A stretch of 41,325 nt of DNA from a virus. Taxonomy: Duplodnaviria; Caudoviricetes. The position numbers and the translations under genes are program-made. This document shows, piece after piece, positions 1 to 41,325 of the stretch. The notes under the pieces were generated by a model that was given only the letters and a program-made list of their open reading frames with translations, was not told the origin of the DNA and made no database searches. The stretch lies in the IMG/VR virus record IMGVR_UViG_3300020045_003191, positions 1 through 41,325 of that record; one strand, given 5' to 3'. Numbering within the stretch: the stretch's first letter is position 1; each line of letters begins with the position of its first letter.

Positions 1-4
1 CAGG

Positions 5-211
5 GTGCTGGATTTTGATAGTGGCTGGGGCAGAGTGAAAACTTACAAACTCTCTGATACCCCGTATTATGACGAGGATTGCATTCACGAGGTTTACATG
101 ATAAATAGGGAGAATAGATTAGTTCCGATTAGGTCATACCCTGTAAAGATAATACTCATATCCGACACAGGGTATTTATACATCCCCATGAGTAGATTGA
201 AGGCATTGTAA
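5..211 (+). CDS. C-terminal part of a hypothetical protein (5'-truncated); possible distant homologue of the 38105-38824 protein
   Basis: Frame open to the window edge; ends GYLYIPMSRLKAL vs DWYIPLECLEPA, and GRVKTYKLSD vs GKVVTFTKAD; same downstream context (hairpin, then GGGCTAAC). Confidence 0.55.
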   Translation: MLDFDSGWGRVKTYKLSDTPYYDEDCIHEVYMINRENRLVPIRSYPVKIILISDTGYLYIPMSRLKAL

Positions 212-212
212 A

Positions 213-238
213 CCCGCCCTCCTGTTGACGAGGGCGGG
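213..238. terminator. GC-rich hairpin between convergent units
   Basis: CCCGCCCTC-ctgttgac-GAGGGCGGG, 9-bp perfect stem just after the stop at 211. Confidence 0.6.
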
Positions 239-334
239 CTAACGGCTTGCGTTAGTTGCGGGAAACGGCGGGACGAGAAAAAGCCGTCAGTTTTGCCGAA
301 GCCCGTTTACCGTCAACTGCACGCTTTGTTGGGC
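237..334 (-). repeat. attC: attC site (98 bp)
   Basis: Minus strand GCCCAAC-AAAGC-GTGCAGTT-GAC...GC-AACTAAC-GCAAGCC-GTTAGCC gives R''/L''/L'/R' boxes with extrahelical bases. Confidence 0.88.
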
Positions 335-448
335 GGCTTCACAGATTGCAATGATACGATTGCATTCTTCAAACACTGTCTGTTTGTCACCTACGTTTGC
401 AAGCAACTTTATTGCAGATGCCCGCATAATTATTTCATCAATATCCAT
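287..448 (-). CDS. Cassette gene, 53-aa hypothetical protein (MDIDEIIMR...)
   Basis: ATG at 448 after AAGGAG; stop lies in the attC loop. Confidence 0.7.
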   Translation of the reverse strand: MDIDEIIMRASAIKLLANVGDKQTVFEECNRIIAICEAAQQSVQLTVNGLRQN

Positions 449-477
449 TTTGCTCCTTATGCCGTTGAGCGAGAGCC

Positions 478-602
478 GCCCAACGGATTGCGTTAGGCGC
501 GTGTGCGCCCGCAGAACGAACATATACGAGAACCATTGCCAAGCGTGATAGTGTAGTCTTTCGAGTGTGCCTTGCACACGTCGCCTGCACGCATTGTTAG
601 GT
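478..602 (-). repeat. attC: attC site (125 bp)
   Basis: Minus strand ACCTAAC-AATGC-GTGCAGGC-GAC-GTGTGC...GCACAC-GC-GCCTAAC-GCAATCC-GTTGGGC. Confidence 0.88.
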
Positions 603-738
603 GCGACCTGACCCACGCATAAAACGCTCGGATGTTTCCAGCTACTAAAGTTTTATGTATATCTGGTGTGTCATTCGACCACTTTAGTTTACGGATATAT
701 TCCTCTATCAATTCAAGATTTTCGTCAACTTGTGTCAT
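493..738 (-). CDS. Cassette gene, 81-aa hypothetical protein with C-terminal CxxH...CxxC
   Basis: ATG at 738 after GGAGG; C-terminal ~35 aa encoded by the attC; stop is the TAA of the L' box. Confidence 0.7.
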   Translation of the reverse strand: MTQVDENLELIEEYIRKLKWSNDTPDIHKTLVAGNIRAFYAWVRSHLTMRAGDVCKAHSKDYTITLGNGSRICSFCGRTRA

Positions 739-751
739 TGTGCCTCCTAGC

Positions 752-880
752 ATCTAACGGCTGGCGTTACCCGCAAGTGGGCGGAACGCTGATAACCTGG
801 TTTGACGGGGCCAATTCCCCGGTGGGTAAAATTTCCGAAGCGGGAGAATCCCCACTTGTCGGGTGGACGCGATGTTCGGC
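752..880 (-). repeat. attC: attC site (129 bp)
   Basis: Minus strand GCCGAAC-ATCGC-GTCCACCC-GAC-AAGTGGG...CCCACTT-GC-GGGTAAC-GCCAGCC-GTTAGAT. Confidence 0.88.
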
Positions 881-1072
881 GGCTTCAAGCATGGCAATTT
901 CTTTTTTACTGTTAAGACACTTGCGATGCAAGAATATTTGGTATGGCTTGTCGTAAGTCTCTGCCATACCGTAAAGCCTGATTACGTTCTCGCCTTCAAT
1001 TCGCCTGCCGCACTCTTCGCAATATCGGACGCGGCGAGATTTTTTTATTATCCGAACTGATAATGTTGGCAT
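767..1072 (-). CDS. First cassette gene, 101-aa zinc-finger-like protein (CEEC...HRKC)
   Basis: ATG after AAGGAGAG; CxxC/HxxC motif; stop in the L' box of the attC. Confidence 0.75.
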   Translation of the reverse strand: MPTLSVRIIKKSRRVRYCEECGRRIEGENVIRLYGMAETYDKPYQIFLHRKCLNSKKEIAMLEAAEHRVHPTSGDSPASEILPTGELAPSNQVISVPPTCG

Positions 1073-1095
1073 AGTCTCTCCTTTGCGGACGTGCC

Positions 1096-1128
1096 GCCGA
1101 ACTATGATTTATACATTAGACTTATACA
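1096..1128 (-). other. attI: attI-like recombination site
   Basis: Minus strand TGTATAA-gtctaa-TGTATAAA-TCATA-G^TTCGGC; lone R core with no hairpin partner, TAAA-N5-GTT geometry as in class 1 attI1, short direct repeats. Confidence 0.65.
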
Positions 1129-1156
1129 ATTATAATCAATTACTATCAGATGTCAA
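1129..1156 (-). promoter_or_regulatory. Sigma70-type promoter facing the cassette array (Pc equivalent)
   Basis: TTGACA (1156-1151), 16 nt, TATAAT (1134-1129). Confidence 0.8.
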
Positions 1157-1442
1157 GTACTAATTTATTGTACCCGGCATCAATACACTGCTGACGCGTG
1201 ACGCCGCGCCGCTTCGCTTTTTCCTCTTGTGCTGGCGACCACGAGACCGTATAAGACCGCTTGCGCCATTCTTCTGACACACGCTTGCGTCGTAGCCATA
1301 AATGGACGCTTCCGTCAATGTTTATGGTGTACTCCCACTTCCGCCCGCAAGCGCGGCACGGGATGGAGCGCGCGCCAGTAGATATGATCTCGGCTCCGCA
1401 CCCGACGCCTTTTGGGTCACGGCATATCGTTTTTGTTTTCAT
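1146..1442 (-). CDS. 98-aa zinc-ribbon plus ribbon-helix-helix-like putative regulator
   Basis: C...C/CRAC motif, then SYTVSWSPAQEEKAKRRGVTRQQCI; ATG overlaps the upstream stop. Confidence 0.5.
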   Translation of the reverse strand: MKTKTICRDPKGVGCGAEIISTGARSIPCRACGRKWEYTINIDGSVHLWLRRKRVSEEWRKRSYTVSWSPAQEEKAKRRGVTRQQCIDAGYNKLVLDI

Positions 1443-1834
1443 TCGCACTCGCTTTCGCCGCCGATAGCCTGCCCGCATATAAACCTTGCACCATCCCCCG
1501 GCGGTGTGATCTGGACAAAGCCATTCTCGACTACGCCGTAAATCATAACTGTGTCACCGGGACAGACATATCCGACGCGGTTGTCGCCAATTTCAGGCGC
1601 GGATCTGATGTGCCAACAGGCAGAACCGATCTCGCCAATTACCACCATTTCGCGGGGGTATGGGTCGGAGGTCGGTTTTACCGTTTGCGATTGAATTTGA
1701 GGCTGAATTTTGGCAGATTCAACGGTTTTTTCAGCGGTTGGCAAAGCCTGAATGGCGGCATTAGACACGCCGCAAGCGATTTGCGCCAGTACTAATATTG
1801 TCAACGTAATGAGTATGATTGTAAACTTATTCAT
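1439..1834 (-). CDS. Secreted/lipoprotein with SH3b-like domain
   Basis: Signal peptide with IAC-G lipobox, P/T-rich linker, WHIRSAP...VGYVCPGDTVMI...NGFVQI. Confidence 0.65.
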   Translation of the reverse strand: MNKFTIILITLTILVLAQIACGVSNAAIQALPTAEKTVESAKIQPQIQSQTVKPTSDPYPREMVVIGEIGSACWHIRSAPEIGDNRVGYVCPGDTVMIYGVVENGFVQITPPGDGARFICGQAIGGESECE

Positions 1835-10574: not shown

Positions 10575-11069
10575 TTACGCTCCAAGGTTTCTTTTCAAAT
10601 AATATGCGGCTCGTTCGATTCTGTCAATATTGTCTTTGAAAAATCCTAATCCAGCGTTGCAGTTAGAACAAAGCAAACCTCTTACTGTTCCAGTTTTGTG
10701 GTCGTGATCTACGAATAGTTTTCCGTAATACTCTCCACAAATAAGGCATGTCCCGTTATTTTCTGCGTACATCTTATCGTAATTTTCTTGCGTTATTCCA
10801 TATTCTTTAATAAAGTATCTATTTCTTGCTTCTGCCTTATGCGTATTGTGATATTTTTTTAGCGTGTCGTAATACTTACTAACTCCTTTTATTTTACTTA
10901 AATAATACAGCTTCGCGCATGTCTTGCATATTGATTTTTTTCCATACTTACCAGCCGGGTTACTGGAGTATTCGTTTAGTGATTTTGTTTTCAAACATTT
11001 TCCGCATTTTTTTGTGGTTTCCACGTGTTTATTCCTTAAAATAAAGTTACGATCTATTCTGATCTCCAC
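10575..11069 (-). CDS. Endonuclease VII-family HNH (homing-type) nuclease
   Basis: CLIC...VDHDHKTGTVRGLLCSNCNAGLG; visibly AT-rich. Confidence 0.9.
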   Translation of the reverse strand: MEIRIDRNFILRNKHVETTKKCGKCLKTKSLNEYSSNPAGKYGKKSICKTCAKLYYLSKIKGVSKYYDTLKKYHNTHKAEARNRYFIKEYGITQENYDKMYAENNGTCLICGEYYGKLFVDHDHKTGTVRGLLCSNCNAGLGFFKDNIDRIERAAYYLKRNLGA

Positions 11070-11266
11070 AAATCAGCAGGAGACAATCCCATTGCATTAC
11101 ATAAAATACTAATGGTTTCAACCCTAACCTGAGTGGGGCGGTTTGCCAACTTATACAAAGCCTGCTTTGACAACCTTCCAACAAAGAAGCGATTGTACAA
11201 GTGACTAACATTCTTTATTTTCAAGTCTCGCATTACGTCATCAAGGGCGAAGTAATATTTTTTCAT
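11054..11266 (-). CDS. Cro/CI-type HTH regulator (70 aa), probably leaderless
   Basis: LSKQALYKLAN...VRVETISILCNAMGLSPADLW; ATG 7 nt after the -10 box. Confidence 0.8.
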   Translation of the reverse strand: MKKYYFALDDVMRDLKIKNVSHLYNRFFVGRLSKQALYKLANRPTQVRVETISILCNAMGLSPADLWRSE

Positions 11267-11273
11267 AATACAG

Positions 11274-11342
11274 ATTATATGCAGAATTGTTATTTTGTCA
11301 AGGGTAATTGACCCTTGACAGTTATCACGTTTTGCATATAAT
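11274..11342. promoter_or_regulatory. Back-to-back consensus promoters (genetic switch)
   Basis: Leftward TTGACA 11301-11296 / TATAAT 11279-11274; rightward TTGACA 11315-11320 / TATAAT 11337-11342; central palindrome TGTCAAGGGT-N5-ACCCTTGACA. Confidence 0.85.
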
Positions 11343-11380
11343 AAGAGACATTGAACAGCAAACAACAACAGGAGCCAGAC

Positions 11381-11602
11381 ATGAACCAATCAATTACAAA
11401 CCACTTGAAATTAGTAGATGAGCTTCCGTCTTATTCTGACATGCACGAAATCTTGGAACGTCTCAAGGATAAGGTCTCAGGCTCCGAACAACACAAGATC
11501 GTAAACATCATGACGGTGCTTGAGCAGTCCGCCAAACTTATCACAACGGACGGACAAGATAAAGACGACGCCGAAGAACAGCTTAACGAAGTTCTTCGAT
11601 AG
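11381..11602 (+). CDS. Hypothetical protein, first gene of the rightward unit
   Basis: AGGAG RBS, ATG at 11381. Confidence 0.65.
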   Translation: MNQSITNHLKLVDELPSYSDMHEILERLKDKVSGSEQHKIVNIMTVLEQSAKLITTDGQDKDDAEEQLNEVLR

Positions 11603-12142: not shown

Positions 12143-13033
12143 ATGAGTTGGACACCGGAAGAAATTGAGGAAGACCGAAAGTATCTCGCAAGCCTAACAC
12201 CCGAAAAATATGCAAAGGTTATGAAGGAACGCGAGGCGGCGCACGCTAAAGAATTGGCTGTTTATGATGAGAATAAGGCGGGACTTGCACAGGTGAAAGC
12301 CTATGCGGAAATGGAAGAAGTGAAAAAGCGTTTTATTAATTTGCTTGGTGATCGTGACGGGCAGGCATACGTTGAAAGTGTTGTTATCGCCGTTTCAGGT
12401 GATGAGCAACTTCAACAATGCACACCAAAGTCAATTATGATTTCAGCCATGCGCGCCGCCTCATTGAAGTTGAGCGTAGACAAAAGCATGAAGCAGGCTC
12501 ATCTTGTCAAGTTCGGAAAAGAAGCTACTTTGATCGTAGACTATCACGGACTTTTGCAGTTGTCCGTAAATACTGGCTACTACAAAATCGCCCCAAATGT
12601 ATTTGAGGTATACGAGGGCGAAGAAATAAAAATGGAGCGTTTCAGCGGTAAGGTTGAGATCGTTGGCGAAAAGACAGGTGATACTGTGATAGGATGGTGC
12701 GGCTATTTCAAAGCCAATAACGGGACAGAACGCTGGCTATACATGACGAACGAAGAGTGCGACGCTCATGGAAAGAAATACAACCCCGGTGGCTTTAGCT
12801 CATCTAAGTCTGCATGGAATACAGACCGCGCAAAGATGCGAAGAAAAACAGTGCTTCGTCAGTTGATTTCAATGTGGGGTAACTTTTCTCCGCAAGTAAA
12901 AAACGTCATTTTTCAAGACGAACCTTCCATTGATGCGGAGTTTGAAGAAATGCCGAATGACGAAAACCTTACTGTACCTATAAAGGAAAAGCGCACGCCG
13001 CAAGAATTAATCAAAGAAATGACGGGAGCATAA
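12143..13033 (+). CDS. recT: RecT/Red-beta single-strand annealing recombinase
   Basis: LQQCTPKSI...AASLKL...DYHGLLQL...VYEGE...MRRKTVLRQL. Confidence 0.9.
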   Translation: MSWTPEEIEEDRKYLASLTPEKYAKVMKEREAAHAKELAVYDENKAGLAQVKAYAEMEEVKKRFINLLGDRDGQAYVESVVIAVSGDEQLQQCTPKSIMISAMRAASLKLSVDKSMKQAHLVKFGKEATLIVDYHGLLQLSVNTGYYKIAPNVFEVYEGEEIKMERFSGKVEIVGEKTGDTVIGWCGYFKANNGTERWLYMTNEECDAHGKKYNPGGFSSSKSAWNTDRAKMRRKTVLRQLISMWGNFSPQVKNVIFQDEPSIDAEFEEMPNDENLTVPIKEKRTPQELIKEMTGA

Positions 13034-14046: not shown

Positions 14047-14085
14047 ACCATCATTGAACAGTAAACAAACAAAAGGAGCCACGAA

Positions 14086-14319
14086 ATGAATAAAACATTC
14101 ACAGTAACGAAGATTGACAAGCACGAAAAAGAAGCACAGGTTCACATGGTTTCCGACAAAGGCGATACTCTGCGATTTTATGCGGCAGAGCAAGCATGGA
14201 CTTTTCGCTCATTCAGAACTGGAAGAATCAGCATGAAGCAACTAGAAAAGATTATTGACCAGTGGTACATGTTTGATAATCAATGTAATGTAAAGATCGG
14301 CGACATGGTGACAGTATGA
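14086..14319 (+). CDS. Hypothetical protein
   Basis: Strong RBS; stop overlaps the next start. Confidence 0.65.
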   Translation: MNKTFTVTKIDKHEKEAQVHMVSDKGDTLRFYAAEQAWTFRSFRTGRISMKQLEKIIDQWYMFDNQCNVKIGDMVTV

Positions 14320-14939
14320 AAATCTTGGTTGCCTGTGAGGAAAGCCAAGTTGTTACGATTGCATTTAGAGCTTTAGGGCACGAAGCGTATTCATGTGACC
14401 TTTTACCGTGTAGCGGCGATCATCCTGAATGGCACTTACAACGGGATGTTAGACCGCTATTGCGAGAGTATTGGGACATGGTCATTGCTCATCCAACATG
14501 CAAGTATTTGACAAATAGCGGAGTTTGTCATTTGTATATTGGCAAACGAAAAGAGAACGGCATTTATCAGCCACGATGGGACAACGTGCGCGAAGGCGCG
14601 GAGTTTTTCAATCTGTTTTTGAACCTTCCGCACATCCCAAAAGTTGCTATTGAAAATCCAATCATGCACCCATATGCAAGAGAAATTATCAAGGTTCCGT
14701 ACACGCAAATAATTCAGCCGTGGATGTTTGGACACATGGAGAGCAAAGCTACTTGTTTATGGTTAAAGGGTTTGCCGGAACTTGAAGAAACTGACAATGT
14801 ATTCGAGCAAATGATGAGATTACCTGATAATCAAAGACAACGATTACACTATCTACCACCTAGTCCCAACAGGGAGCGCGAAAGAAGTAAAACATTTTTA
14901 GGAATTGGAAAGGCAATGGCAGAACAATGGACAAGATAA
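14316..14939 (+). CDS. Phage-type DNA cytosine methyltransferase
   Basis: ILVACEES...AYSCDL...WDMVIAHPTC...IENP...IQPWMFGH...KATCLWL...MAEQW. Confidence 0.8.
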   Translation: MKILVACEESQVVTIAFRALGHEAYSCDLLPCSGDHPEWHLQRDVRPLLREYWDMVIAHPTCKYLTNSGVCHLYIGKRKENGIYQPRWDNVREGAEFFNLFLNLPHIPKVAIENPIMHPYAREIIKVPYTQIIQPWMFGHMESKATCLWLKGLPELEETDNVFEQMMRLPDNQRQRLHYLPPSPNRERERSKTFLGIGKAMAEQWTR

Positions 14940-15103
14940 AAAAAGTCTCAAAAAAAGTAAAGCCCCGCAAGGACATAAACCGGGATGGGCAGTCAAACCG
15001 CGCGGCGCAATTGAACGCCAAAGCACAGGCAAAAGGCTGGACGGGTATCAGCGAGTATTTGACGGCGGTAATCAACGATAAATCCGGGATACCGGAAAAG
15101 TAA
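14927..15103 (+). CDS. 58-aa basic ribbon-helix-helix-like protein (below the ORF-track cutoff)
   Basis: LNAKAQAKGWTGISEYLTAVI; overlaps the methyltransferase stop. Confidence 0.45.
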   Translation: MDKIKKVSKKVKPRKDINRDGQSNRAAQLNAKAQAKGWTGISEYLTAVINDKSGIPEK

Positions 15104-15124
15104 ACAAACAAAAGGAGCAACGAA

Positions 15125-15313
15125 ATGAAATTTGATAATCAAATTCGCGCCATCCAATACGCAATGAAAGAATTACAGCGTGAGCGTATCAAGGCAGTTG
15201 AGGCAAAGAATCAAGAATGGATTAATGATGTTGACCAATATCTTTTTGACCTTATCCGCGCCGTCGAAACTATTCAAGCCATGAAAGCCTTGTCAAAGGT
15301 AATCGCTAATTGA
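15125..15313 (+). CDS. Hypothetical helical protein
   Basis: Strong RBS. Confidence 0.6.
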   Translation: MKFDNQIRAIQYAMKELQRERIKAVEAKNQEWINDVDQYLFDLIRAVETIQAMKALSKVIAN

Positions 15314-17538: not shown

Positions 17539-18812
17539 CTTATGTTATCCAGCATACGACCGACCCAAAGATAGCGGACTATATTCCCTACGGCGGGAAC
17601 GAGGAGTTCATGTACTCGCATGAGCCGGAAGTTATCGCAGAGGGCGCGGCGGAAACGGGTAAGACATTGGCGGCTTGCTGGAAGTCGCATTTGCTTTTAA
17701 GCAAGTACGCTGGCGCGCAAGGTGCGCTACTACGCAAGACACAGACAAGCGTATATGGTTCGGTCATTCAGACATACGAGCGAGTAATAAAGGGTTCGCC
17801 CGTTACCAAGTACGGCGGCGAAAAGCCTGAGAAGTACACCTATCCCAACGGCTCAATCCTTTGGGTGGGTGGGATGGATAATAAAGACCGCGTGCTATCA
17901 TCGGAGCGTGATTTTATACAGACGTGCCAAACGGAAGAGTTCAGCCTGGATGATTGGGAATATCTGACAACCCGTACAACGGGACGTAGTGCGGTGGTAC
18001 GCTATCCGCAAATATTCGGTGACTGCAATCCCGGCGGCTCAAAACATTGGATACGACGAAGGAACAGCGATGGACATTTGAAGTTGATTCATACCGTCCA
18101 TAAAGACAACCCGACTTTGTGGGATGGTAGCAACTGGACAGTACAGGGCGAGCGCACATTGTCCCGCCTCTCTGCCTTATCAGGCATACGGCGCAAGCGG
18201 TTATTTGATGGGATATGGGCAACCGCTGAGGGCGCGGTATACGATATGTTTGATAGTGCCGTACACGTCAAGCAACGTGACCCGGCTGATATGAAGCAAT
18301 GGTACTTGGCGGTTGACGAAGGATACACAAACCCGGCTGTAATCCTGTTGATTGGAGAGGATGCGGACGGACGGCGGCATGTGTTTCAGGAATACTATGA
18401 GCGCGGCAAATTGCAAAGCGCGGTTGTAGCTGTAGCATTGGGCTTTTGCGAGTGGGTCGTAACTACTACAGGGTTATCAGTTTCACTTGCGGCGGTTGAC
18501 GCGGCGGCGGCTGGGTTGGTTGCTGAATTGGTTGACGCTGGCGTTCCTGCGATTGGCGCAAAGGGGCGGGTACTGGACGGCATACAGCGTATGCAGGACA
18601 GACTCAAGGTACAATCAGACGGACTACCTAGAGAATCAATTGACCCGTCATGTGTAAATCATATCAACGAGTATGAGTCATACGTGTGGAAGAAAACAAA
18701 CGCAACAGGGATTGCGAAGGACGAACCGCAAAAAGAGGACGATCACTCTATGGACGCGCGGCGATACTTGGAGGACGCATTAGGGGATGCGCCTACATGG
18801 TCATTTATATAG
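17535..18812 (+). CDS. terL: Terminase large subunit (PBSX-like)
   Basis: Walker A GAAETGKT, DCNPG, DEGYTNP, DDHSMDARRY. Confidence 0.95.
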   Translation: MTYVIQHTTDPKIADYIPYGGNEEFMYSHEPEVIAEGAAETGKTLAACWKSHLLLSKYAGAQGALLRKTQTSVYGSVIQTYERVIKGSPVTKYGGEKPEKYTYPNGSILWVGGMDNKDRVLSSERDFIQTCQTEEFSLDDWEYLTTRTTGRSAVVRYPQIFGDCNPGGSKHWIRRRNSDGHLKLIHTVHKDNPTLWDGSNWTVQGERTLSRLSALSGIRRKRLFDGIWATAEGAVYDMFDSAVHVKQRDPADMKQWYLAVDEGYTNPAVILLIGEDADGRRHVFQEYYERGKLQSAVVAVALGFCEWVVTTTGLSVSLAAVDAAAAGLVAELVDAGVPAIGAKGRVLDGIQRMQDRLKVQSDGLPRESIDPSCVNHINEYESYVWKKTNATGIAKDEPQKEDDHSMDARRYLEDALGDAPTWSFI

Positions 18813-18822
18813 TGAGGTAATC

Positions 18823-20961
18823 ATGCAGACAAGATTTGTAATGACAGACGGCGCAAAATCGGTAGGGATGCTATCCAGCAACGACCCGTCTATTTGGAAC
18901 TTCTTTTCAGGCGCGCCGCAATCATCGAAGGTTGTTTTATATTCCTACGTTGCCGCGGTGTATCGTGCCTATAATCTATTTGCTGATACCGTTGGTTCTT
19001 TGCCGTTTGCGCTGTATAGCCTGAATGGTAAAGACGAATACGACTCATCTGAGAACTGGGAAAACAAAGTTGGCTTTTTACCCAACCCCTCCGAACTATG
19101 GCGGCTGGATACCCTGTCATATATTGACAGTAACACGGTATACAATTTGCGGACATCGGATGTAATAGGATACAAAACGAAGGGCTTATACTTTGCCGTG
19201 CCTACCACGTTTTACCCGGTAACGAACGCAAGCGGGCAGTTGGACTATATCGAAAGGCGGGTAAATGGTTCGCCTGAAAGATACGAGACAGATGATAAAC
19301 GACTTGTCCGCATGTGGCGCAAAGATCATACTACAGAGGTACTCCCATCCCCTAACACCATCGCACAGGCAATCCAGCATTCAGCGGAGCAGGTGTTATA
19401 TACTGACTCATGGATAACGCACTACTACCAGCGCGGCGGTATCAAGCCCACGCTCATCGCCATGAAAGGACTGGTACAAAAGGAAAAGGGAGAGGAAGCC
19501 GAAAAGACATTTACTCAATGGTTGCGCGGACTGGGTAAATACTTCGGGAACATAGCCAAGATATACAACGCTGAGACAATGGACATCAAAGCGTTTGGCG
19601 ATGGCGTGGCAGAGTTGAAGGATAACGGGGTGTATAGGCAGGCGCTGGAGAATATAGCAATCGGCGCGGGCTTGCCATTGTCCCTGTTGTTATCCAATAG
19701 TGCGAACTATGCAACCGCCTCCACAGAGGAAAGGCAGTGGTACAAAAACACCATTACGCCCTTTAGTCGCTGGCTGGCGTATGGATATAATGAGCAGGTG
19801 TTTCACCCGATGGGGTTACACCTAAAATATAACATGGCGACAATGGACAGCCAACAGGAAGAGGACGCACAGAACGCGGCAACGGCAAAAGTTATCAATG
19901 ACCTGCTGTTACAATGTCCCACGTATGAACTATTCGAGGCGATTTCTAAAAGCTATGTTGAAGTCAGTGACGAATTATTAGTTGCCGCAAAGCAATACTA
20001 CACAGACAAGGCGAAGCAAGCCGCGCCCGTTGTTGTCAATACGCAACCCGATACCGCACAACCGAAGCCGGGAACAGAGACAGAGGAAATACCTGTTGGC
20101 ACTGAAAAGAATGACACAAAGGCTATTGGAGAAAATGATACAAGTGCCATGATTGCCTTGCGAATTCCCGACGTAATTAGGGCGGAGATAAAAGAAAAGT
20201 ACCCGTTTGTGGACAGTGAGACTCTAAGTGATTTACATATTACACTTGCGCATCTTGGCGATAATCGAACGATAGACAAATTGGACGTTGTAAGGGCTGT
20301 CTCTGAAATGGGTAAATATCAATTCCCCATAAAGGGAAAGTTACAGGGGCTGGCGCGCTTTGCTAATGGGCGGGACGTTGACCCGCTTGTAATGACATTC
20401 GATAGCCCACAGATGCCCGGTGTGTATAGTGTGTTGTGTAGCTTCTTGGATAGTTATCACATCCCTTATCATAAAGAGCACGGCTTCATTCCGCACATGA
20501 CGCTTGCCTACATACCAAAAGACGCCGAAATGCCCATTGATAGTATAGAGCCAATTGAGATTAACTTCTCTGATATTTATTATGTAGATAGTAATGTTTG
20601 GTATTCTGTTCAATTGGTTGGGTATGAAAACAAAAATACCAAATGGACACCCTCACTGGATGAGCTGGACGAACTGCGAATCTGGCGTGAGGTTGCTTTA
20701 CGCCGTCACAAAAAGGGCGAGAGCCTGGACTTTGAATATCAGCCACATCATGGCGGACTGCCTGAAAGTGTGACGGCTGATATAAAGGCGCGGCTGATAG
20801 ATGCGGTGGATAATGATACAATCAAGGCGGTGTTTGTTGTTAATCAATCGGTTGTAAAAGATAAGCCAAAACCAGACACAGACATAAAATCACTGGCAAA
20901 CGCTATTAATAAATATGCGGACGTGTTGAATAAAACAAAACAGTTAACGGCTACGACGTGA
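18823..20961 (+). CDS. Portal protein with a fused 2H-phosphoesterase domain
   Basis: Follows terL; YYQRGG, SANYATA portal motifs; HITL and HMTL motifs at 20236 and 20494. Confidence 0.85.
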   Translation: MQTRFVMTDGAKSVGMLSSNDPSIWNFFSGAPQSSKVVLYSYVAAVYRAYNLFADTVGSLPFALYSLNGKDEYDSSENWENKVGFLPNPSELWRLDTLSYIDSNTVYNLRTSDVIGYKTKGLYFAVPTTFYPVTNASGQLDYIERRVNGSPERYETDDKRLVRMWRKDHTTEVLPSPNTIAQAIQHSAEQVLYTDSWITHYYQRGGIKPTLIAMKGLVQKEKGEEAEKTFTQWLRGLGKYFGNIAKIYNAETMDIKAFGDGVAELKDNGVYRQALENIAIGAGLPLSLLLSNSANYATASTEERQWYKNTITPFSRWLAYGYNEQVFHPMGLHLKYNMATMDSQQEEDAQNAATAKVINDLLLQCPTYELFEAISKSYVEVSDELLVAAKQYYTDKAKQAAPVVVNTQPDTAQPKPGTETEEIPVGTEKNDTKAIGENDTSAMIALRIPDVIRAEIKEKYPFVDSETLSDLHITLAHLGDNRTIDKLDVVRAVSEMGKYQFPIKGKLQGLARFANGRDVDPLVMTFDSPQMPGVYSVLCSFLDSYHIPYHKEHGFIPHMTLAYIPKDAEMPIDSIEPIEINFSDIYYVDSNVWYSVQLVGYENKNTKWTPSLDELDELRIWREVALRRHKKGESLDFEYQPHHGGLPESVTADIKARLIDAVDNDTIKAVFVVNQSVVKDKPKPDTDIKSLANAINKYADVLNKTKQLTATT

Positions 20962-21659
20962 ACACAAATATTATCCGCTCTCTTGTAAAGAATATCCCCG
21001 AACTTATGCCGCATTTAACGGACAAGGTGCGTTGGATATTCCACGCACAAGGCGGAGAGTATAAGACATACGATTACTTTTTGAACAATCTTACCCGGCT
21101 TATACAATCAGTGTATGACGGCAACTTAGGCGGCGGCTTTATAGATACTATGGCAAACCTGATAAGCGGGCAATTAACACAAGCATTTGAACAGGCGTGG
21201 AGCGACGAAGAGGGCGAAGGCGGACTACCTGATTATCTATCATCCGCGCTTGAGGATATGATACTCGGACAGTACGATCATGTAGACCAGTTTTATCGCG
21301 ACATTGTAGACGCACGGGTAGACCAAACACCCATTGACCCACTACTCGCCCGCGCTCCATTATGGGCGCAAAGATGGATAGAGGCATATAATCAGGCGGT
21401 TGCTTTGATTACAACAGAGAATGGTGGTAATCTTATATGGCAATTAGGAGAGACAGAGCAACACTGTGCCTCTTGTTCTACCTTGAACGGGATTGTAGCG
21501 CGTGCGTCCGAGTGGGAAGAGTTGGGAGTACGCCCGCAAGGCGCGCCGAATGCGTTGCTTGAATGCGACGGCTGGCATTGTGACTGCTCGCTCTCTGCTA
21601 CAGACAAGAGGCGAAGCCCGAAGGCTTATGAGAGTATAATGAATGCGGTGAATAAATAA
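20958..21659 (+). CDS. Head morphogenesis (MuF/gp7-like) protein
   Basis: W...HCASCSTLNG...CDGWHCDCSL; position after the portal. Confidence 0.7.
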   Translation: MNTNIIRSLVKNIPELMPHLTDKVRWIFHAQGGEYKTYDYFLNNLTRLIQSVYDGNLGGGFIDTMANLISGQLTQAFEQAWSDEEGEGGLPDYLSSALEDMILGQYDHVDQFYRDIVDARVDQTPIDPLLARAPLWAQRWIEAYNQAVALITTENGGNLIWQLGETEQHCASCSTLNGIVARASEWEELGVRPQGAPNALLECDGWHCDCSLSATDKRRSPKAYESIMNAVNK

Positions 21660-22135
21660 TGCCTGTTCAATTATCAATACACACGGTTGGCGCGGATTTG
21701 GTACGTAAAGGGCTGGAGGATATTGACGCGCAAATCCCACAGATCGGAAGGCAGAGAATATATGATGCGCTTGTGCGTGCGCGTACCCGCTTGCGTGCGC
21801 CTGTGTCCAGACCGTCACATCCTATCCATTGGGACAGTGAGAGACAGCGGCGGGCGTTCTTTGCTAGTGATGGATTTGGGCGCGGTATCCCGTCACGGCG
21901 GACAGGGCGTTATCAAAGAGGTTGGGAGTTGGTGCGCTTGGGCAATGGATACCGCATGGAGAACGCCGCCGATCATGCTAAATATCTGGGCGGTAGTTAT
22001 GAGGGCGGCGGGCAGTCCAGTATTCACGCCTCACGCTATCCGTTATTTCAGCAGGTGGTAGAGGATGAGATACAAGAGTTACCACCCGAAATTGAACAGT
22101 ACATCACATATTACGCGAGAAATAGAGGTTTTTGA
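21659..22135 (+). CDS. Putative HK97 gp10-like virion morphogenesis protein
   Basis: RRTGRYQRGW...ENAADHAKYL pattern; position. Confidence 0.5.
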   Translation: MPVQLSIHTVGADLVRKGLEDIDAQIPQIGRQRIYDALVRARTRLRAPVSRPSHPIHWDSERQRRAFFASDGFGRGIPSRRTGRYQRGWELVRLGNGYRMENAADHAKYLGGSYEGGGQSSIHASRYPLFQQVVEDEIQELPPEIEQYITYYARNRGF

Positions 22136-22389
22136 TGTTTTATGCTATCTCAACATCACCCGATACTGTGATTGTTTATCGTTGGTCAACCGAACTTCCA
22201 ACACAAGAGGGGTGGTATTGGTGTAAAAATACGAGATATACATTATCCCCTGTTGCTGTTTTTCATGTTGTTAATAGCCATGATGGTTTACGCATTGCAT
22301 TTGATGACAAAAGTTTATTGTTATCAGAGCAGAATTTTATCACCCACTGGCTCGGTGTGATTCCTGTACCAGACTTGCCAGATTTATGA
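22132..22389 (+). CDS. Hypothetical protein (moron-like)
   Basis: WSTELPTQEGWYW...THWLG.IP.P; AT-rich. Confidence 0.5.
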   Translation: MMFYAISTSPDTVIVYRWSTELPTQEGWYWCKNTRYTLSPVAVFHVVNSHDGLRIAFDDKSLLLSEQNFITHWLGVIPVPDLPDL

Positions 22390-22471
22390 TACAATGTAAA
22401 AAATAAATAATAACTAGGCGAGCGGCATAACCGCAACCGATGTTATAAATCAGCCACATTAGAATCTAAGA

Positions 22472-22520
22472 CGCTGAGTTGCCCTGAATGTATCAGGCGC
22501 AATTCGGCGTCTTTTTGTTT
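22472..22520 (+). terminator. Long hairpin with U-tract upstream of the endonuclease/capsid genes
   Basis: AGACGCTGAGTTGC-CCTGA...TCAGG-CGCAATTCGGCGTCT-TTTTGTTT. Confidence 0.55.
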
Positions 22521-22529
22521 GAGGTGAGT

Positions 22530-23201
22530 ATGCTGAATACTGGAATATATGAAATAAGAAATATAAAAACCAATGATTTCTATATTGGTAGTGCTTCCAG
22601 CTTGAAGGACAGGAAAAGGCAACATTTTACGGCACTGAGATTAGGAGACCATCACAATACGCATTTACAAAACTCGTACAACAAACATGGTTTGAATAGT
22701 TTTGTTTTCAAGATACTGACCTATTGCAATAAAGATATGCTTATTTATTTTGAACAAAGATTTATTGACTTCATGAAGCCAACGTATAACAAGAGGCTCG
22801 TAGCTGAAAGCAACATAGGAATAAAGCGGTCTGATGAAGCCCGTAAGAATATTAGTGAAGCACATAAAGGGATTAAGTATTTACTTTCAGACGAAAGGCG
22901 TAAGGAATTACGGGACAGTATGCTTGGAAATGTTTTTGCAAAAGCAATTATTTACACGGACGAATTAAGAGAAAAGAAACGTTTGTCAATGCTAGGTAAG
23001 AATAAAGGGAAGATACCAACTGATGAAACGAGAAAGAAGTGGAGTGATATTAGAAAAGGTAAAAAACAATCTGAAATCACAAAGCAAAAAAGAAGTATTT
23101 CTATGACCGGCAAGAAGTACTCAGAAGAAACAAGGAAAAAGATGAGCGAAGCAAAAAAGAAATTCTATGCAATACTTCGCGGAGAAATAAAAGATGAGTG
23201 A
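22530..23201 (+). CDS. GIY-YIG homing endonuclease with NUMOD3-type repeats
   Basis: GIYEIRN...FYIGSA...R...H; SEETRKKMSEAKK-type repeats; AT-rich. Confidence 0.93.
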   Translation: MLNTGIYEIRNIKTNDFYIGSASSLKDRKRQHFTALRLGDHHNTHLQNSYNKHGLNSFVFKILTYCNKDMLIYFEQRFIDFMKPTYNKRLVAESNIGIKRSDEARKNISEAHKGIKYLLSDERRKELRDSMLGNVFAKAIIYTDELREKKRLSMLGKNKGKIPTDETRKKWSDIRKGKKQSEITKQKRSISMTGKKYSEETRKKMSEAKKKFYAILRGEIKDE

Positions 23202-25116
23202 AGAAATTAAGGTTGGCGCAAGGCATAACTCTTTGGATACGAACTCTTTACAAACAGCACACGATGCCATAGTGTCTGCTGGCGCAACGTGTATCCCTGC
23301 AAAATTTGTTAATTACAGTGTCGAGAATGGTGCAATTTGCAAAGATGGAAAGGCGTTAGAGCCTGATGAAATCATGGTGTTTTTGGGTAGCGAAGTCAAG
23401 GCGTTGGGTGACGGGAAGGTAGCCGGGTTATTGGTACGTCATTCAACACAGACCGACCCGGATTTGACTGATGATTACTTCGATGCAAAGACAGAGATAT
23501 ATCACGCTGACACTTTGCCCGTTTTGTATCAACACGGCATGGATAAGCAATTCGGTAAACGGGTCATCGGCACAGCCAAAGCGAAACGCGATGAGGTAGG
23601 GGTATGGCTCGAGGCACAACTTAACTTGCGTGATGATTATGAAAAAGCGTTATACGCGTTGGCTGAAAAGGGAAAGCTCGGATGGTCAAGCGGTGCGGTA
23701 TCTCATTTGGTAGAGCGTGAATTATCGGATAACGGCAAAGCCTACCACATCAAATCATGGTTTATCGGTGAGGCGAGTTTGACACCCACGCCCGCCGAAC
23801 CAAGAAACATGGTGTCACTGAAATCATGGATAACACCCGAAGCGGTAATCACCGATAAGAGTGATGAAGTAGTACAAACTAAAACAGGAGAAAATATTAT
23901 GGACAAAGATGAAATGAAGGCTTTGTTTGACGAACAGAAAACGGCAATCACCGAACTCGTTAAAACAGAAGCCGAATCCGCCGCACAAAAAGCGGTTGAT
24001 AATGTTCTGGACAAACTGCCAGAAGTCAAAGCCAAGATGAACGCAACTGTACAGGTGGTTGAAGCCGCCGAAGATCGCCCGTTCAAATCATTGGGCGAAC
24101 AATTGATAGCCGTTGCAAACGCAACGAAGAATGGTCAAATCCATGACCGCATCCGCGGCTTGAAAGCATACGAGACGAAAGCCGCTCTCGGAAGCAACGA
24201 AGCGATTCCGTCGCAGGGCGAGTTCCTTTTGGAACCCACCATCACGCAAACGCTGTTGCAGAATATTCACGAGCAGGGCGTATTTACACAGGATGTACAA
24301 AAACTTCCTGTCGGACCAAACTCAAATAGCGGTTGGATTCCCGGTGTTGATGAAACCTCCCGCGCCGCTGGCTCGCGCTGGGGCGGGGTGCGTGGTTATC
24401 ACGCCGCCGAAGCCGCAAGCATGACAGCCTCACAGCCGAAGTTCCGCAAAATTAACTGGGAGCTTCATAAGACCTACGTTTTGCAATATGCCAGTGATGA
24501 ACTGCTGAATGACGTTGGTTTGATGAACGCCATTATCCAGAAATCCAGCATGGAGGAACTTGACTTCCTTGCGAACTATGATGCACTCTTGGGTATCGGT
24601 GGAGATCGCCCGGTCGGTGTACTGCTTTCCAGCGCGTTGATTTCAATTTCACGCGCGGCAACGACTGCCATTGCTCATGCTGACATTGTGGGCATGTGGG
24701 CGCGTATGCTCCCCCGCTCAAAGGCAAAGGCGAAGTGGTACATCTCATCCGATGTACACGCACAGCTTGACCAATTGACCTTTACCAGCGGCTCGACTGG
24801 AATCCTCTCGCCCTATATTGGCTATGGTCAAGATGGTGTGATGCGGATTTATGGTCGCCCTGTTGTAGAGACCGAGTTTAACCCCGCTTTGGGTACATTG
24901 GGCGACATCCTGCTCGCGGATATGTCCGAATACCTGTGGTGGGAAAAGAACGCCGTGGAAGCCGCGTCGAGTATTCACGTTCAATTCTTGACCGACCAGA
25001 CCGCGTTCCGTTACGTGTATCGCAACGACGGACAAACCGCGCTGGCGTCCGCAATCACCCCCGCCAATGGCGGAGCCACACAAAGCCCGTTCGTCGCCTT
25101 GCTCGCGACCACCTAA
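23194..25116 (+). CDS. Prohead protease in frame with HK97-fold major capsid protein (internal start at 23899)
   Basis: PVLYQHG, GWSSG, EASLTPTPAEPR; capsid motifs SDELLND, IYGRPVV, FLTDQTAFR...RNDG. Confidence 0.9.
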   Translation: MSEEIKVGARHNSLDTNSLQTAHDAIVSAGATCIPAKFVNYSVENGAICKDGKALEPDEIMVFLGSEVKALGDGKVAGLLVRHSTQTDPDLTDDYFDAKTEIYHADTLPVLYQHGMDKQFGKRVIGTAKAKRDEVGVWLEAQLNLRDDYEKALYALAEKGKLGWSSGAVSHLVERELSDNGKAYHIKSWFIGEASLTPTPAEPRNMVSLKSWITPEAVITDKSDEVVQTKTGENIMDKDEMKALFDEQKTAITELVKTEAESAAQKAVDNVLDKLPEVKAKMNATVQVVEAAEDRPFKSLGEQLIAVANATKNGQIHDRIRGLKAYETKAALGSNEAIPSQGEFLLEPTITQTLLQNIHEQGVFTQDVQKLPVGPNSNSGWIPGVDETSRAAGSRWGGVRGYHAAEAASMTASQPKFRKINWELHKTYVLQYASDELLNDVGLMNAIIQKSSMEELDFLANYDALLGIGGDRPVGVLLSSALISISRAATTAIAHADIVGMWARMLPRSKAKAKWYISSDVHAQLDQLTFTSGSTGILSPYIGYGQDGVMRIYGRPVVETEFNPALGTLGDILLADMSEYLWWEKNAVEAASSIHVQFLTDQTAFRYVYRNDGQTALASAITPANGGATQSPFVALLATT

Positions 25117-38824: not shown

Positions 38825-38831
38825 TATAAAA

Positions 38832-38861
38832 CTCCCACTGTCCATTTTGCAACAGCGGGAG
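38832..38861. terminator. Hairpin between the late operon and the convergent cassette array
   Basis: AAAA-CTCCCACTGT...ACAGCGGGAG; the U-tract reads on the minus strand. Confidence 0.55.
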
Positions 38862-38903
38862 GAGACGGCGTTACCTAATCCGTATACCGTTTATTATTTG
38901 CCG

Positions 38904-39032
38904 GGCTAACGGCTGGCGTTAGTGGCAGTGGGGCGGGCTGGGAAAATGCCAGAGAGCCGCACCAACTACCAGACGCGAACCAACTAAATCAGCGGGGAGA
39001 ATCCCCACTGTCCACTGCACGCGGTGTTAGCC
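38904..39032 (-). repeat. attC: attC site (129 bp)
   Basis: Minus strand GGCTAAC-ACCGC-GTGCAGTG-GAC-AGTGGGG...CCCCACT-GC-CACTAAC-GCCAGCC-GTTAGCC. Confidence 0.88.
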
Positions 39033-39291
39033 CGCGTTTTCGTTCGGCAATCTTTTTCAGCAATTCACCAGCAATCAATTCATCATCATTTCCAAATAGA
39101 TTGTCTGGCGCGGTCTTGATAAGTGCAATCGCCTGAATTGCTTTTGTTTCTGCGGCTTCTAAAACTTGCTTGCGCCGTTCTGGATTTTGGAAAAACTCCA
39201 CTGCTGACGCAATGCCGCCGCCTGATGGTATTGCTTCACGAGCGATAAATTGAGTAATCAATTTTGTGACATTTGTTCCGTATTTGCTCAT
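38989..39291 (-). CDS. Cassette gene, 100-aa hypothetical protein (MSKYGTN...)
   Basis: AAGGAGAG RBS; stop inside the attC. Confidence 0.75.
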   Translation of the reverse strand: MSKYGTNVTKLITQFIAREAIPSGGGIASAVEFFQNPERRKQVLEAAETKAIQAIALIKTAPDNLFGNDDELIAGELLKKIAERKRGLTPRAVDSGDSPR

Positions 39292-39314
39292 GGCTCTCCT
39301 TTTGCAAAGAAGCG

Positions 39315-39425
39315 GGCTAACGGTTTGCGTTACCCGCAAGGGCGAGAACGCAAGACCATGAATTTATTAGAATGGAATATCGTTTTCAGACTCGTTGCCC
39401 TTGTCGGGTGCACGCTTTGTTAGGC
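39315..39425 (-). repeat. attC: attC site (111 bp)
   Basis: Minus strand GCCTAAC-AAAGC-GTGCACCC-GAC-AAGGGC...GCCCTT-GC-GGGTAAC-GCAAACC-GTTAGCC. Confidence 0.88.
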
Positions 39426-39615
39426 GGTGTACTATTGACCAAAACCACGACATGACATCTGAATAAACCTGATAGGCTTTCACCTTACGGTATGACCAAC
39501 ACCTATCATATAAGAGATACCCATATTCGCAACAGTTGACGGCAACGGCTTGCTGACCTACGCCAATATCAACATATTCAAACGGATGTAAATCACAAAA
39601 CGGACATTTTTCCAT
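39367..39615 (-). CDS. Cassette gene, 82-aa Cys-rich protein (MEKCPFC...DIPF)
   Basis: GAAAGG RBS; stop in the attC loop; also in frame with the upstream cassette gene. Confidence 0.65.
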   Translation of the reverse strand: MEKCPFCDLHPFEYVDIGVGQQAVAVNCCEYGYLLYDRCWSYRKVKAYQVYSDVMSWFWSIVHRLTKRAPDKGNESENDIPF

Positions 39616-40050
39616 GATGAACCTTTCACGCGGCGAAGCCGCCCAACGGTTTGCGTTACCCGCGTGGGGCACGCGAACCTGTCCAATTATTGCCCAGCCT
39701 GCCCCACGTCGGGTGCACGCTGTGTTAGACCCCGTAAGAGCCTCACGATAAAGAGACCTTACTTCATCTTCCGAAGCGACAATATCTGTGGATGGATACA
39801 ATCCATTGTTTGAGCTTTCCCATCCAGTACCTTCGAGGTTTTCATAATCAATGTGTTCCAATCGCGCCATGAGCGAACCATCACAATCTTTGTCGTAGCC
39901 AGTTATGCGGAATGCAAGCAAAACGATTGTTCCAACTGGCTCAGGCTCAATGGGATCGCGGCGAATAGTTGAAAAATTATCTGGAAAGCCTGGCATTGAT
40001 TCCATTCTGAAATTTTCTTCTTCGGCTGTTATTTCTCTGACTGTTCTCAT
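39367..40050 (-). CDS. Cassette gene (MRTVREIT...) reading through its attC into the next cassette gene; 227-aa fusion
   Basis: AAGGAG RBS before 40050; no in-frame stop across attC 39641-39730. Confidence 0.65.
   Translation of the reverse strand: MRTVREITAEEENFRMESMPGFPDNFSTIRRDPIEPEPVGTIVLLAFRITGYDKDCDGSLMARLEHIDYENLEGTGWESSNNGLYPSTDIVASEDEVRSLYREALTGSNTACTRRGAGWAIIGQVRVPHAGNANRWAASPRERFIMEKCPFCDLHPFEYVDIGVGQQAVAVNCCEYGYLLYDRCWSYRKVKAYQVYSDVMSWFWSIVHRLTKRAPDKGNESENDIPF
39641..39730 (-). repeat. attC: attC site (90 bp)
   Basis: Minus strand GTCTAAC-ACAGC-GTGCACCC-GAC-GTGGGGC...GCCCCAC-GC-GGGTAAC-GCAAACC-GTTGGGC. Confidence 0.88.
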
Positions 40051-40069
40051 AAGGCTCCTTTGCTTAGGG

Positions 40070-40203
40070 GTCTAACGGCCAAGCGTTACCGGATTGTGGC
40101 TGCGGATGTAGTATCCGCCCCTTTGACGGTGACGCCATCGGCTGACATATTAGCCGGTGAAACGGGACCGCCCGCCACAATTCCGGTGGACGCAATGTTG
40201 GCT
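40070..40203 (-). repeat. attC: attC site (134 bp)
   Basis: Minus strand AGCCAAC-ATTGC-GTCCACCG-GA-ATTGTGGC...GCCACAAT-CCGGTAAC-GCTTGGCC-GTTAGAC. Confidence 0.85.
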
Positions 40204-40475
40204 TGCGCTTCTGCGGGCGTGATGTGATGCTGACGATAATAAGCGTGCCATTCGCGGGAGGGCCAGAAATATCCGCCGTCGTAAATGTAAATTGGATTGG
40301 CGGGGTTGAACGGATAGGCGCTGTAAGTTGCACGGTCTGGATACCCTGGGGCCGAAACGCCACAACGCTGAAATCCGCCGATGTATTTATTATCCAGGCC
40401 GCACAACGAAATCCAAACTTCGGATTTTTCGTAATCGTCTGGCGAGGTGCATTTCTTTGCGGGGAAGTGTTCCAT
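40086..40475 (-). CDS. Cassette gene, 129-aa hypothetical protein (MEHFPAKK...)
   Basis: GGAG RBS; stop is the TAA in the L' box. Confidence 0.7.
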   Translation of the reverse strand: MEHFPAKKCTSPDDYEKSEVWISLCGLDNKYIGGFQRCGVSAPGYPDRATYSAYPFNPANPIYIYDGGYFWPSREWHAYYRQHHITPAEAQANIASTGIVAGGPVSPANMSADGVTVKGADTTSAATIR

Positions 40476-41325
40476 ATTTCTCCAATAGCAAGCCAACGGA
40501 TTGCGTTACCGGCGAAAAGCCGAGAACCAACCAAGCAAACGGGATAAGATATTTCGAGCGGACAAAGCCGCTTTGACGGCTGCTGGCTTTTCGTCCGGTG
40601 GACGCGGTGTTAGGTGGCGTGCAGAACGGCCCGCACTCAACCCCGCGTAATTTCTGAGAGAGTTCTTTGCCGAGGAAGTTTAGCCCTGGCAGTTCATCGA
40701 GGAAATATTTCCGGCAGATGTGATAATTCAACTCTCTTTCTATCGTGGCGATTTTCCAAAAGTTCTCTGGAAAATATGTAAAAACTTTTAGCCAGTAAGC
40801 AATTGATTTAGATTTCACGCACCCTAAACAATTGTTATTTGGAAAGCCAAGATAATAAAGTTCTGGCAATCGAATACCAGCAGATTCGAGAATGGTTAGA
40901 CAATCGCGCTTTGTTATGCCAAGTTCGATGAGCGGCCAAAGTAAATACAAATCTGGATTGTCTCTTTCAAAATCTTTTGCCCGGCGAGTTTCCCCGGCAT
41001 GATAACCAAAGACATGGTAATCAGATGGCTCTTGCCAGAGTTCACGCACGCGCCGCTTTAGTTCATGCGTGCATGGTGCAAAACCCTTACCGACAATAAA
41101 TCTCTTTTTCCTGAAAACATCATAAATATCTTTGTACTCGCTGGAATAGAGTTGCAGAATTGGTACGTTTGTCCATTCTGATATTTGATTTTGAAAGCGG
41201 AGATTATCGGGCGATTCGGTTGAAAGAGTGCTGGCACAATTAACCGCTATCACGTTTTGATAATTCGCGGCGGCATATTTCAAGGCGATCGCTGACGCAG
41301 CGCCATTTGAAAACCAAACCACCAC
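40390..41325 (-). CDS. PAPS-reductase-family (PP-loop) protein, 5'-truncated cassette gene reading through its attC
   Basis: VVWFSNGAASA PP-loop, APCTHELK, GFPNNNCLGCVK, VECGPFC. Confidence 0.8.
   Translation of the reverse strand: MVVWFSNGAASAIALKYAAANYQNVIAVNCASTLSTESPDNLRFQNQISEWTNVPILQLYSSEYKDIYDVFRKKRFIVGKGFAPCTHELKRRVRELWQEPSDYHVFGYHAGETRRAKDFERDNPDLYLLWPLIELGITKRDCLTILESAGIRLPELYYLGFPNNNCLGCVKSKSIAYWLKVFTYFPENFWKIATIERELNYHICRKYFLDELPGLNFLGKELSQKLRGVECGPFCTPPNTASTGRKASSRQSGFVRSKYLIPFAWLVLGFSPVTQSVGLLLEKYGTLPRKEMHLARRLRKIRSLDFVVRPG
40491..40615 (-). repeat. attC: attC site (125 bp)
   Basis: Minus strand ACCTAAC-ACCGC-GTCCACCG-GAC-GAAAAGCC...GGCTTTTC-GC-CGGTAAC-GCAATCC-GTTGGCT. Confidence 0.88.

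Follow-up and report, generated by a model that had tools for sequence, protein, structure and literature searches.

A host-type attI-like site, a promoter and attC cassette arrays on a tailed phage contig without an integrase gene

Integron integrases (IntI) excise gene cassettes by attC x attC recombination and insert them by attC x attI recombination (Ghaly et al. 2021, PMC8618304). Can a phage draw on this chemistry when it carries the sites and not the enzyme? The question is raised by a viral contig of 41,325 nt, analysed here over its entire length (the window), on whose minus strand a promoter, an attI-like site and attC cassettes lie together. Integrase-less attC clusters in phages are, as such, already known. 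Such clusters (CALINs) were defined by Cury et al. 2016 (PMC4889954), together with the inverted integrases of the Treponema group, and Qi et al. 2023 (PMC9892861) reported 17 CALINs and 3 complete integrons in 10,705 phage genomes, with phage attC sites that recombine with IntI1. The only CALIN headed by an attI in the body of that report belongs to Shewanella prophage M16-3, a prophage that also encodes an intI, and no Chloroflexota phage appears in its main text or in one of its supplements. The accessible part of a 2026 review cites Qi et al. as its sole source on phage integrons, and neither integrase-less phage arrays with an attI nor integrons of Chloroflexota phages came up in our literature search, which had subscription journals mostly outside it.

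The window is linear, has no terminal repeat and is estimated by CheckV to be 99% complete. A scan of 64 ORFs identified terminase subunits, a portal, a major head protein, a Dit-like tail protein and an endolysin, as well as RecT, SSB and replication genes; the phage is a tailed one. Both contig ends cut genes. At the start, ORF 2..211 on the plus strand holds the C-terminal 69 codons of a protein of about 173 aa, its 5′ part (about 104 codons) being cut off, and at 41,325 a PAPS-reductase-like gene is interrupted. Circular joining of the ends was ruled out, since it completes neither cut gene. Also ruled out were a single locus from two strains made up of gene 2-211 and a 239-aa gene, which show no similarity, and a reading of gene 2-211 as the end of an intI; the encoded protein, from a family whose members measure about 173 aa, ends in a weakly SH3-like part. 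Reads were found in one run (X1), with a depth of 2-5, fragmentary coverage and zero reads across the contig ends; two short contigs that diverge at about 38,891-38,902, and three joints, are too weak to use. Elsewhere in the phage, the portal gene (18787-20961) has a fused C-terminal domain that matches PHROGs ‘RNA ligase’ families, the early right-hand operon contains a direct repeat of 35 bases (14056-14090 and 15095-15129, 94% identical), and a short palindromic repeat of the GCCAACGC type occurs in several copies within two overlapping ORFs at 1838-2350, with homologous ORFs in the phage genome G004.

attC sites and cassettes of the two arrays

Two detectors, a position matrix and a covariance model, were trained solely on attC sites from bacterial genomes, the training set of the covariance model comprising 46 sites from Anaerolineales/Chloroflexota records. 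In the structure of this set 97% of the cells are paired, against at most 42% when the alignment is slid, and 55 double-sided changes occur against 17 in shuffles, a count that related sequences within the set can inflate. The covariance model found exactly eight attC sites in the window, at 37-77 bits, with the next match at 12.7 bits, and for all eight assigned the bottom strand to the plus strand. The position matrix recovered seven of the eight, and none in each of 20 block shuffles.

A preliminary description of this DNA, made from its letters, had read three palindromes as the attC sites of three cassettes. This identification was borne out: the bottom strands of all three fold as attC, and the model trained on host sites scores them at 60-67 bits. 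Their number, however, was too low, because the window holds eight sites in total, the three already placed and five more at 38,904-40,615. The folded bottom strands show an R box, an unpaired spacer, an L box, an extrahelical G and a second extrahelical T, extrahelical bases having been proposed in the preliminary description as well; the preference by free energy is mixed, with just 4 of the 8 sites favouring the bottom strand. The features that define the class, namely inverted R′′/R′ and L′′/L′ boxes, an AAC/GTT core, an unpaired spacer and extrahelical bases, are all present, and on sequence and predicted fold the eight sites are attC of the Anaerolineales (Chloroflexota) type.

Array A comprises three cassettes on the minus strand. 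Cassette A1 (759..1102, 344 bp) contains ORF 1072-767, for a small Cys/His protein, and ends in an attC of 129 nt (752-880, 60 bits). It is followed by A2 (485..758, 274 bp; ORF 753-493), with an attC of 125 nt (478-602, 66 bits), and by A3 (244..484, 241 bp), whose ORF 448-287 (53 aa) ends within its attC of 98 nt (237-334, 67 bits). Between the array and a converging gene lies a G+C hairpin (208..243, inverted repeat I19, -23.1 kcal/mol), a likely terminator, which a terminator scan did not flag. The upstream neighbours of the array are small phage genes.

Array B, at 38,904-40,615, comprises five attC cassettes on the same strand. The first, B1 (40498..41325, attC 40491-40615, 58 bits), is cut by the contig end and encodes the PAPS-reductase-like protein (phrog_424, E 1.6e-35), a 46% identical homologue of which is carried within a cassette of the phage G009. 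The others are B2 (40077..40497, 421 bp; attC 40070-40203, 37.5 bits), B3 (39648..40076, 429 bp; attC 39641-39730, 71 bits), B4 (39322..39647, 326 bp; attC 39315-39425, 69.5 bits) and B5 (38911..39321, 411 bp; attC 38904-39032, 77 bits). A hairpin at 38831..38860, likely a second terminator, faces a converging lysis-region gene that ends at 38824. The head of array B is absent from the contig and lies beyond its end. Counted from the last crossover, both arrays terminate in the same eight bases. Array B had no match among GenBank phages.

The start of each of the 7 complete cassettes is complementary to its own R′′, with 10/10 bases in five (A1, A3, B2, B3 and B5) and 8/10 in two (A2 and B4). 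Averaged across 84 adjacent pairs, taken both from viral loci and from the window, the complement is 6.0 of 7 versus 3.8 when shuffled (maximum 4.23 in 2,000 shuffles), while the two ends of the same attC, taken as a control, reach 3.4 of 7. This complementarity indicates that the units were once circular cassettes. The preliminary description had the palindromes end these units; the genes do not stop ahead of them but read into or through attC: the TAA of L′ serves as the stop codon of A1 and A2, and in the wider family 71% of 241 cassette ORFs read into attC.

With three attC sites in array A and five in array B, each array exceeds the two or more that characterize a CALIN, and at array A, in contrast to a complete integron, no intI lies beside attI. 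Arrays A and B are CALIN-like, with a host-type attI-like head and a promoter, and are not a complete integron. They share with the phage CALINs described in the main account of Qi et al. (PMC9892861) a row of single-gene cassettes, each bounded by attC and all pointing the same way, in a tailed phage, here on a contig in which no intI was found. What sets the window apart is the host-type attI-like site and the promoter ahead of array A.

The promoter and head site of array A

Array A lies downstream of a perfect sigma-70-type promoter, TTGACA-N16-TATAAT, on the minus strand at 1129..1156. It agrees with the consensus at 12/12 bases, as the preliminary description had noted, and stands 27 nt upstream of the crossover. 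It is predicted to be the Pc of array A. This form is the usual promoter type of the phage: two more copies, overlapping and divergent, lie at 11,274-11,342, adjoining a Cro/CI-type HTH gene (11054-11389). The -35 box falls in the last codons of the upstream gene (1146..1478, minus strand), which had been described as a 98-aa regulator-like gene. That length is the one counted from the second ATG, and an ending of ribbon-helix-helix appearance can be recognised by eye, but from the first ATG the product has 110 aa with a zinc-ribbon-like start, and we found neither a family nor a homologue for it. It was ruled out as an integrase.

In class 1 integrons the geometry of attI1 is TAAA-N5-GTT. The head site of array A occupies 1096..1115 on the minus strand and reads TGTATAAATCATA followed by G^TT, with the crossover G at 1102. 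Its attI-like nature, proposed in the preliminary description, was supported by comparison with host integrons. The head shares 15 of 16 bases with the attI beside intI at the host locus L293; the heads of L294 and L365 are of the same type, and the IntIs of all three form one clade (support 100/99). A host attI matrix was built from 8 divergent array heads that R′′ complementarity confirmed among 35 host intI loci, many of whose contigs end too early. With this matrix position 1102 came first of all 1,464 GTT sites in the window, scoring 11.6 bits against 9.0 for the next, and it kept a lead of 0.03 bits when L293 was left out; a 16-head matrix chosen by eye gave rank 1 as well. In hosts, heads of precisely this type are rare, occurring at 3 of 35 intI loci. 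A pattern without GTTG starts gave 3 host matches, one of them 160 nt from intI, versus 6 for the reversed control, and no genome-wide enrichment in host genomes.

Among phages, the 15-nt core of the window head is unchanged in the head of the closed genome G015. We aligned 28 integrase-less phage heads, the window included, all found without the motif and excluding intI-linked heads, unresolved heads, the head of G020 and four found later. They have AA at -8/-7 (26/28 at each position) and TA at -2/-1 (27/28 at each), and their conservation reaches position -10 and beyond. A search with the resulting phage attI motif gave 33 viral matches, of which 8 loci were known before the search; 22 have cassettes behind them (20 with an attC within 2.6 kb, two by other tests) and 11 look like chance. 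Many phage heads sit behind a small gene, ribbon-helix-helix-like by eye, as in the window. Of 24 heads, only 3 have a near-consensus promoter at a distance of up to 200 nt, and most arrays are therefore probably transcribed as part of an operon, whereas array A of the window has a promoter of its own.

These heads bear on whether a dedicated platform exists at all. Instead, the first cassette might have been inserted at a secondary attG site, whose core is GWT, with the others stacking at attC, the head motif being a target preference. According to the preprint that describes it (bioRxiv 10.1101/2022.09.11.507474), attC x attG insertion is efficient and is a proposed source of small CALINs, and the upstream gene's TAG stop codon and the crossover overlap in 7 of the 28 heads. 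We regard this origin as very unlikely: whereas an attG site is defined by a short GWT consensus unrelated to attI, the window head belongs to a set conserved far beyond GWT and matches a host attI at 15 of 16 bases, as the best of 1,464 sites. It also has the sequence properties of an attI: it is not a hairpin, its R core is GTT, a degenerate L box precedes this core by 5 nt, and the whole resembles the attI of the host. The preprint’s attC x attG insertions, or SALINs, resemble the mode proposed for our locus in that IntI works in trans, at a site outside the integron that encodes it, and differ from it in their target, a 3-base GWT core rather than a conserved attI-like site.

The source of the integrase

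No tyrosine recombinase (PF00589) or serine recombinase (PF00239) matched anywhere in the contig. We consider it probable that array A is an integrase-less attI platform on which a host IntI, acting in trans, inserts, excises and reorders cassettes. By established integron chemistry, IntI would bind attC as a folded bottom strand and attI as double-stranded DNA, cutting at G^TT; since the cut falls there, new cassettes would enter at 1102, directly below the promoter. During infection an IntI supplied in trans, most likely by the host, would thereby place each new cassette under the promoter and older cassettes would be pushed toward the closing hairpin. A host-type attI and a promoter alone would then let the phage sample and express accessory genes via a host enzyme at almost no coding cost.

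The host is likely a member of the Anaerolineales, as judged only by the att sites. The attC pattern of the window occurred at 110 viral loci on about 89 contigs, and at no fewer than 125 loci in bacterial genomes, which among the 80 matches listed belong mostly to Anaerolineales/Chloroflexota; IntI exceeded the TIGR02249 cut-off in 99 of 301 Anaerolineales genomes. The arrays share their attC family with the sedentary chromosomal integrons of this order, and the head of array A shares its attI core with the L293/L294/L365 clade. In contrast to these, the window has no intI beside attI and its cargo is phage-type, and viral cassettes are much shorter, with genes reading into attC. The system is common, with integrase-bearing and integrase-less genomes both among the viral contigs; for scale, the account of Qi et al. 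gives 17 CALINs in 10,705 genomes (PMC9892861), versus about 89 contigs here by one strict pattern. It provides defined substrates in the form of a host IntI clade, phage IntIs and two attI types.

The absence of an integrase from 41 kb is in itself not conclusive, because the contig is linear, lacks a terminal repeat and breaks off within a gene on either side; arrays A and B each lie within 1.2 kb of an open end. The integrase-less state claimed in the preliminary description therefore stands for the contig and for the surroundings of the array A attI, but not for the missing head of array B. An intI of the phage’s own could lie in an unassembled gap between 41325 and 1, upstream of array B, and serve both arrays, for the head of array B, the start of B1 and about 104 codons of gene 2-211 are all missing. 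Related phages do encode such enzymes. A search with TIGR02249 over 50 of the 89 viral contigs, those of at least 25 kb, found IntI above the cut-off in 8 (two further were IntI-like, one fragment), and in the 6 whose heads were read out intI lies just upstream of the array head, co-oriented. The heads that accompany phage IntIs are, however, of a different, palindromic attI type, unlike that of the window, and an IntI-like gene (257 bits) accompanies a host-type head in just one of the fetched genomes, G010. Given also the CheckV completeness of 99%, we think an intI in the gap unlikely.

The integrase-less state is also seen in closed phage genomes. Among 15 genomes with this attC type, defined as closed by direct terminal repeats and 100% completeness, 8 have no tyrosine recombinase, 4 have one that is not IntI, and 3 have their own co-oriented IntI; head genes were confirmed in 7 of the 8 and in all 3 (3/3), respectively. 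The integrase-less state is thus real in this system. A ninth integrase-less closed genome, G361, was found via the attI motif.

The phage IntIs fall in phage-specific clades, with that of G010 on a long branch. In G008, G025, G027, G029, G033, G035, G038 and G044 the array is co-oriented with the phage IntI and the palindromic attI lies at the 3′ end of the gene; in G008 the gene is interrupted by a stop. In G010, which has three arrays, the divergent IntI-like recombinase (895-1875) lies between two of them, directly behind an attC. The GenBank entry Virus Rctr41k (KX853513.1; L367 4510-9931) contains a complete integron in which the IntI, annotated only as xerD, is co-oriented, with a palindromic attI and at least six attC of this family. 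G020 (14,700-15,014) has a decayed phage-type attI with one cassette, the end of the upstream gene resembles an IntI tail, and there is no intI in the genome; it is possibly an intermediate of integrase loss. Set against the inverted-integrase integrons as outlined in Cury et al. (PMC4889954), the IntIs here are phage-borne and phage-specific, and array A of the window has no upstream intI.

Since some phages of this system encode IntI, a co-infecting phage could also be the donor. The enzyme in trans might then come mainly from co-infecting or resident phages, and integrase-less phages would hitchhike in a phage-run cassette economy. The phage-specific clades agree with this, as do the short phage cassettes, rarely shared with hosts, and G020, with its decayed phage-type attI and no intI. 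The window head, however, fits host attI far better than it fits the heads linked to phage IntI, and a third of the sampled host genomes have intI; a mainly phage-borne supply is in our judgement improbable, and we keep to the host as the probable source.

Cassette cargo and movement

The cassette pools of phages and hosts differ markedly. The median cassette length is 243 nt in viruses (n=243) versus 609 nt in hosts (n=75; p about 1e-14), and only 6 of the 75 host cassettes match a viral one, these coming from three loci that could be prophage. A simple model of capture from host arrays would not lead one to expect so small an overlap. Within the range scanned of PHROGs, Pfam and NCBIfam, no family matched the seven small proteins of the window cassettes (all but that of B1), and the look-alikes of the A1 protein are viral hypothetical clusters. 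The largest clusters of viral cassette proteins are DNA methyltransferases, with 12 and 7 members; of 96 cluster representatives 16 have Pfam matches, 8 of them to DNA-modification families, some weak. DNA methyltransferases are likewise frequent cargo of the phage CALINs in the report of Qi et al. (PMC9892861), a likeness that concerns the wider family here. The cargo is probably a stock of small accessory genes and DNA-modifying genes kept on the phage side, which would be useful against host defences.

Observations that bear on cassette movement come from other phages. Among 260 viral cassettes, five sets (K0, K1, K2, K3/K4 and K5) recur in different phages beside different neighbours, at 81-100% identity; the other multi-member clusters represent near-identical or overlapping contigs, and none of the window cassettes recurs at the DNA level. 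Variable cassettes behind a shared head motif were also seen in other phages. For the window, protein scans with the 239-aa, 262-aa and 131-aa proteins and the 2-211 family yielded no close relative, the endolysin led to one distant locus with no attC seen, a structural protein had no match in 401 host-order genomes (0/401), and the exact promoter-attI pattern had none in metagenome contigs; in these collections, which may leave out very near records, no close relative turned up in which cassettes at this locus could be seen to change.

The block of attI and cassettes could accordingly be a frozen relic, taken once and since moved only by the homologous recombination of the phage. A RecT-like gene is present (12143-13033), turnover at this locus is seen in no relative, and 2 of the 7 complete cassettes show two mismatches in their start/R′′ complement. 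Yet all eight attC sites are intact, the cargo is phage-like rather than host-like, and single cassettes recur beside different neighbours in other phages. A relic is for these reasons an improbable explanation, and array A remains best read as a platform probably served by host IntI.

A broader proposal is more tentative. Anaerolineales phages may run an integron economy of their own, in which some encode phage-specific, co-oriented IntIs and many have only attI docking sites that parasitise the IntI of a host or helper, together circulating phage-specific, very short cassettes with genes fused to attC. We hold this to be possible, though on balance doubtful. If true, phages would be a place where new cassettes form from phage genes, making cassette origin testable. 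Integron cassettes are by now recognised as reservoirs of defences against phages (two papers on bioRxiv, 2024), and under the same proposal a defence-stockpiling machine of the host would become a counter-defence tool. More generally, the arrays bear on the reason for integrase-less attC clusters and on the origin of cassettes.

A further cassette was observed in the phage genome G003 (19617-24150; L304, L233). It appears to be a single unit of 4.4 kb, with a start/R′′ complement of 9/10, and contains an HTH gene, unknowns of 500 aa and 330 aa, a B12/radical-SAM gene and, by a match to TIGR03116 that stays below the cut-off (E 3e-20), a Csf3-like gene. It is possibly a type IV CRISPR-like effector module in the form of a cassette.
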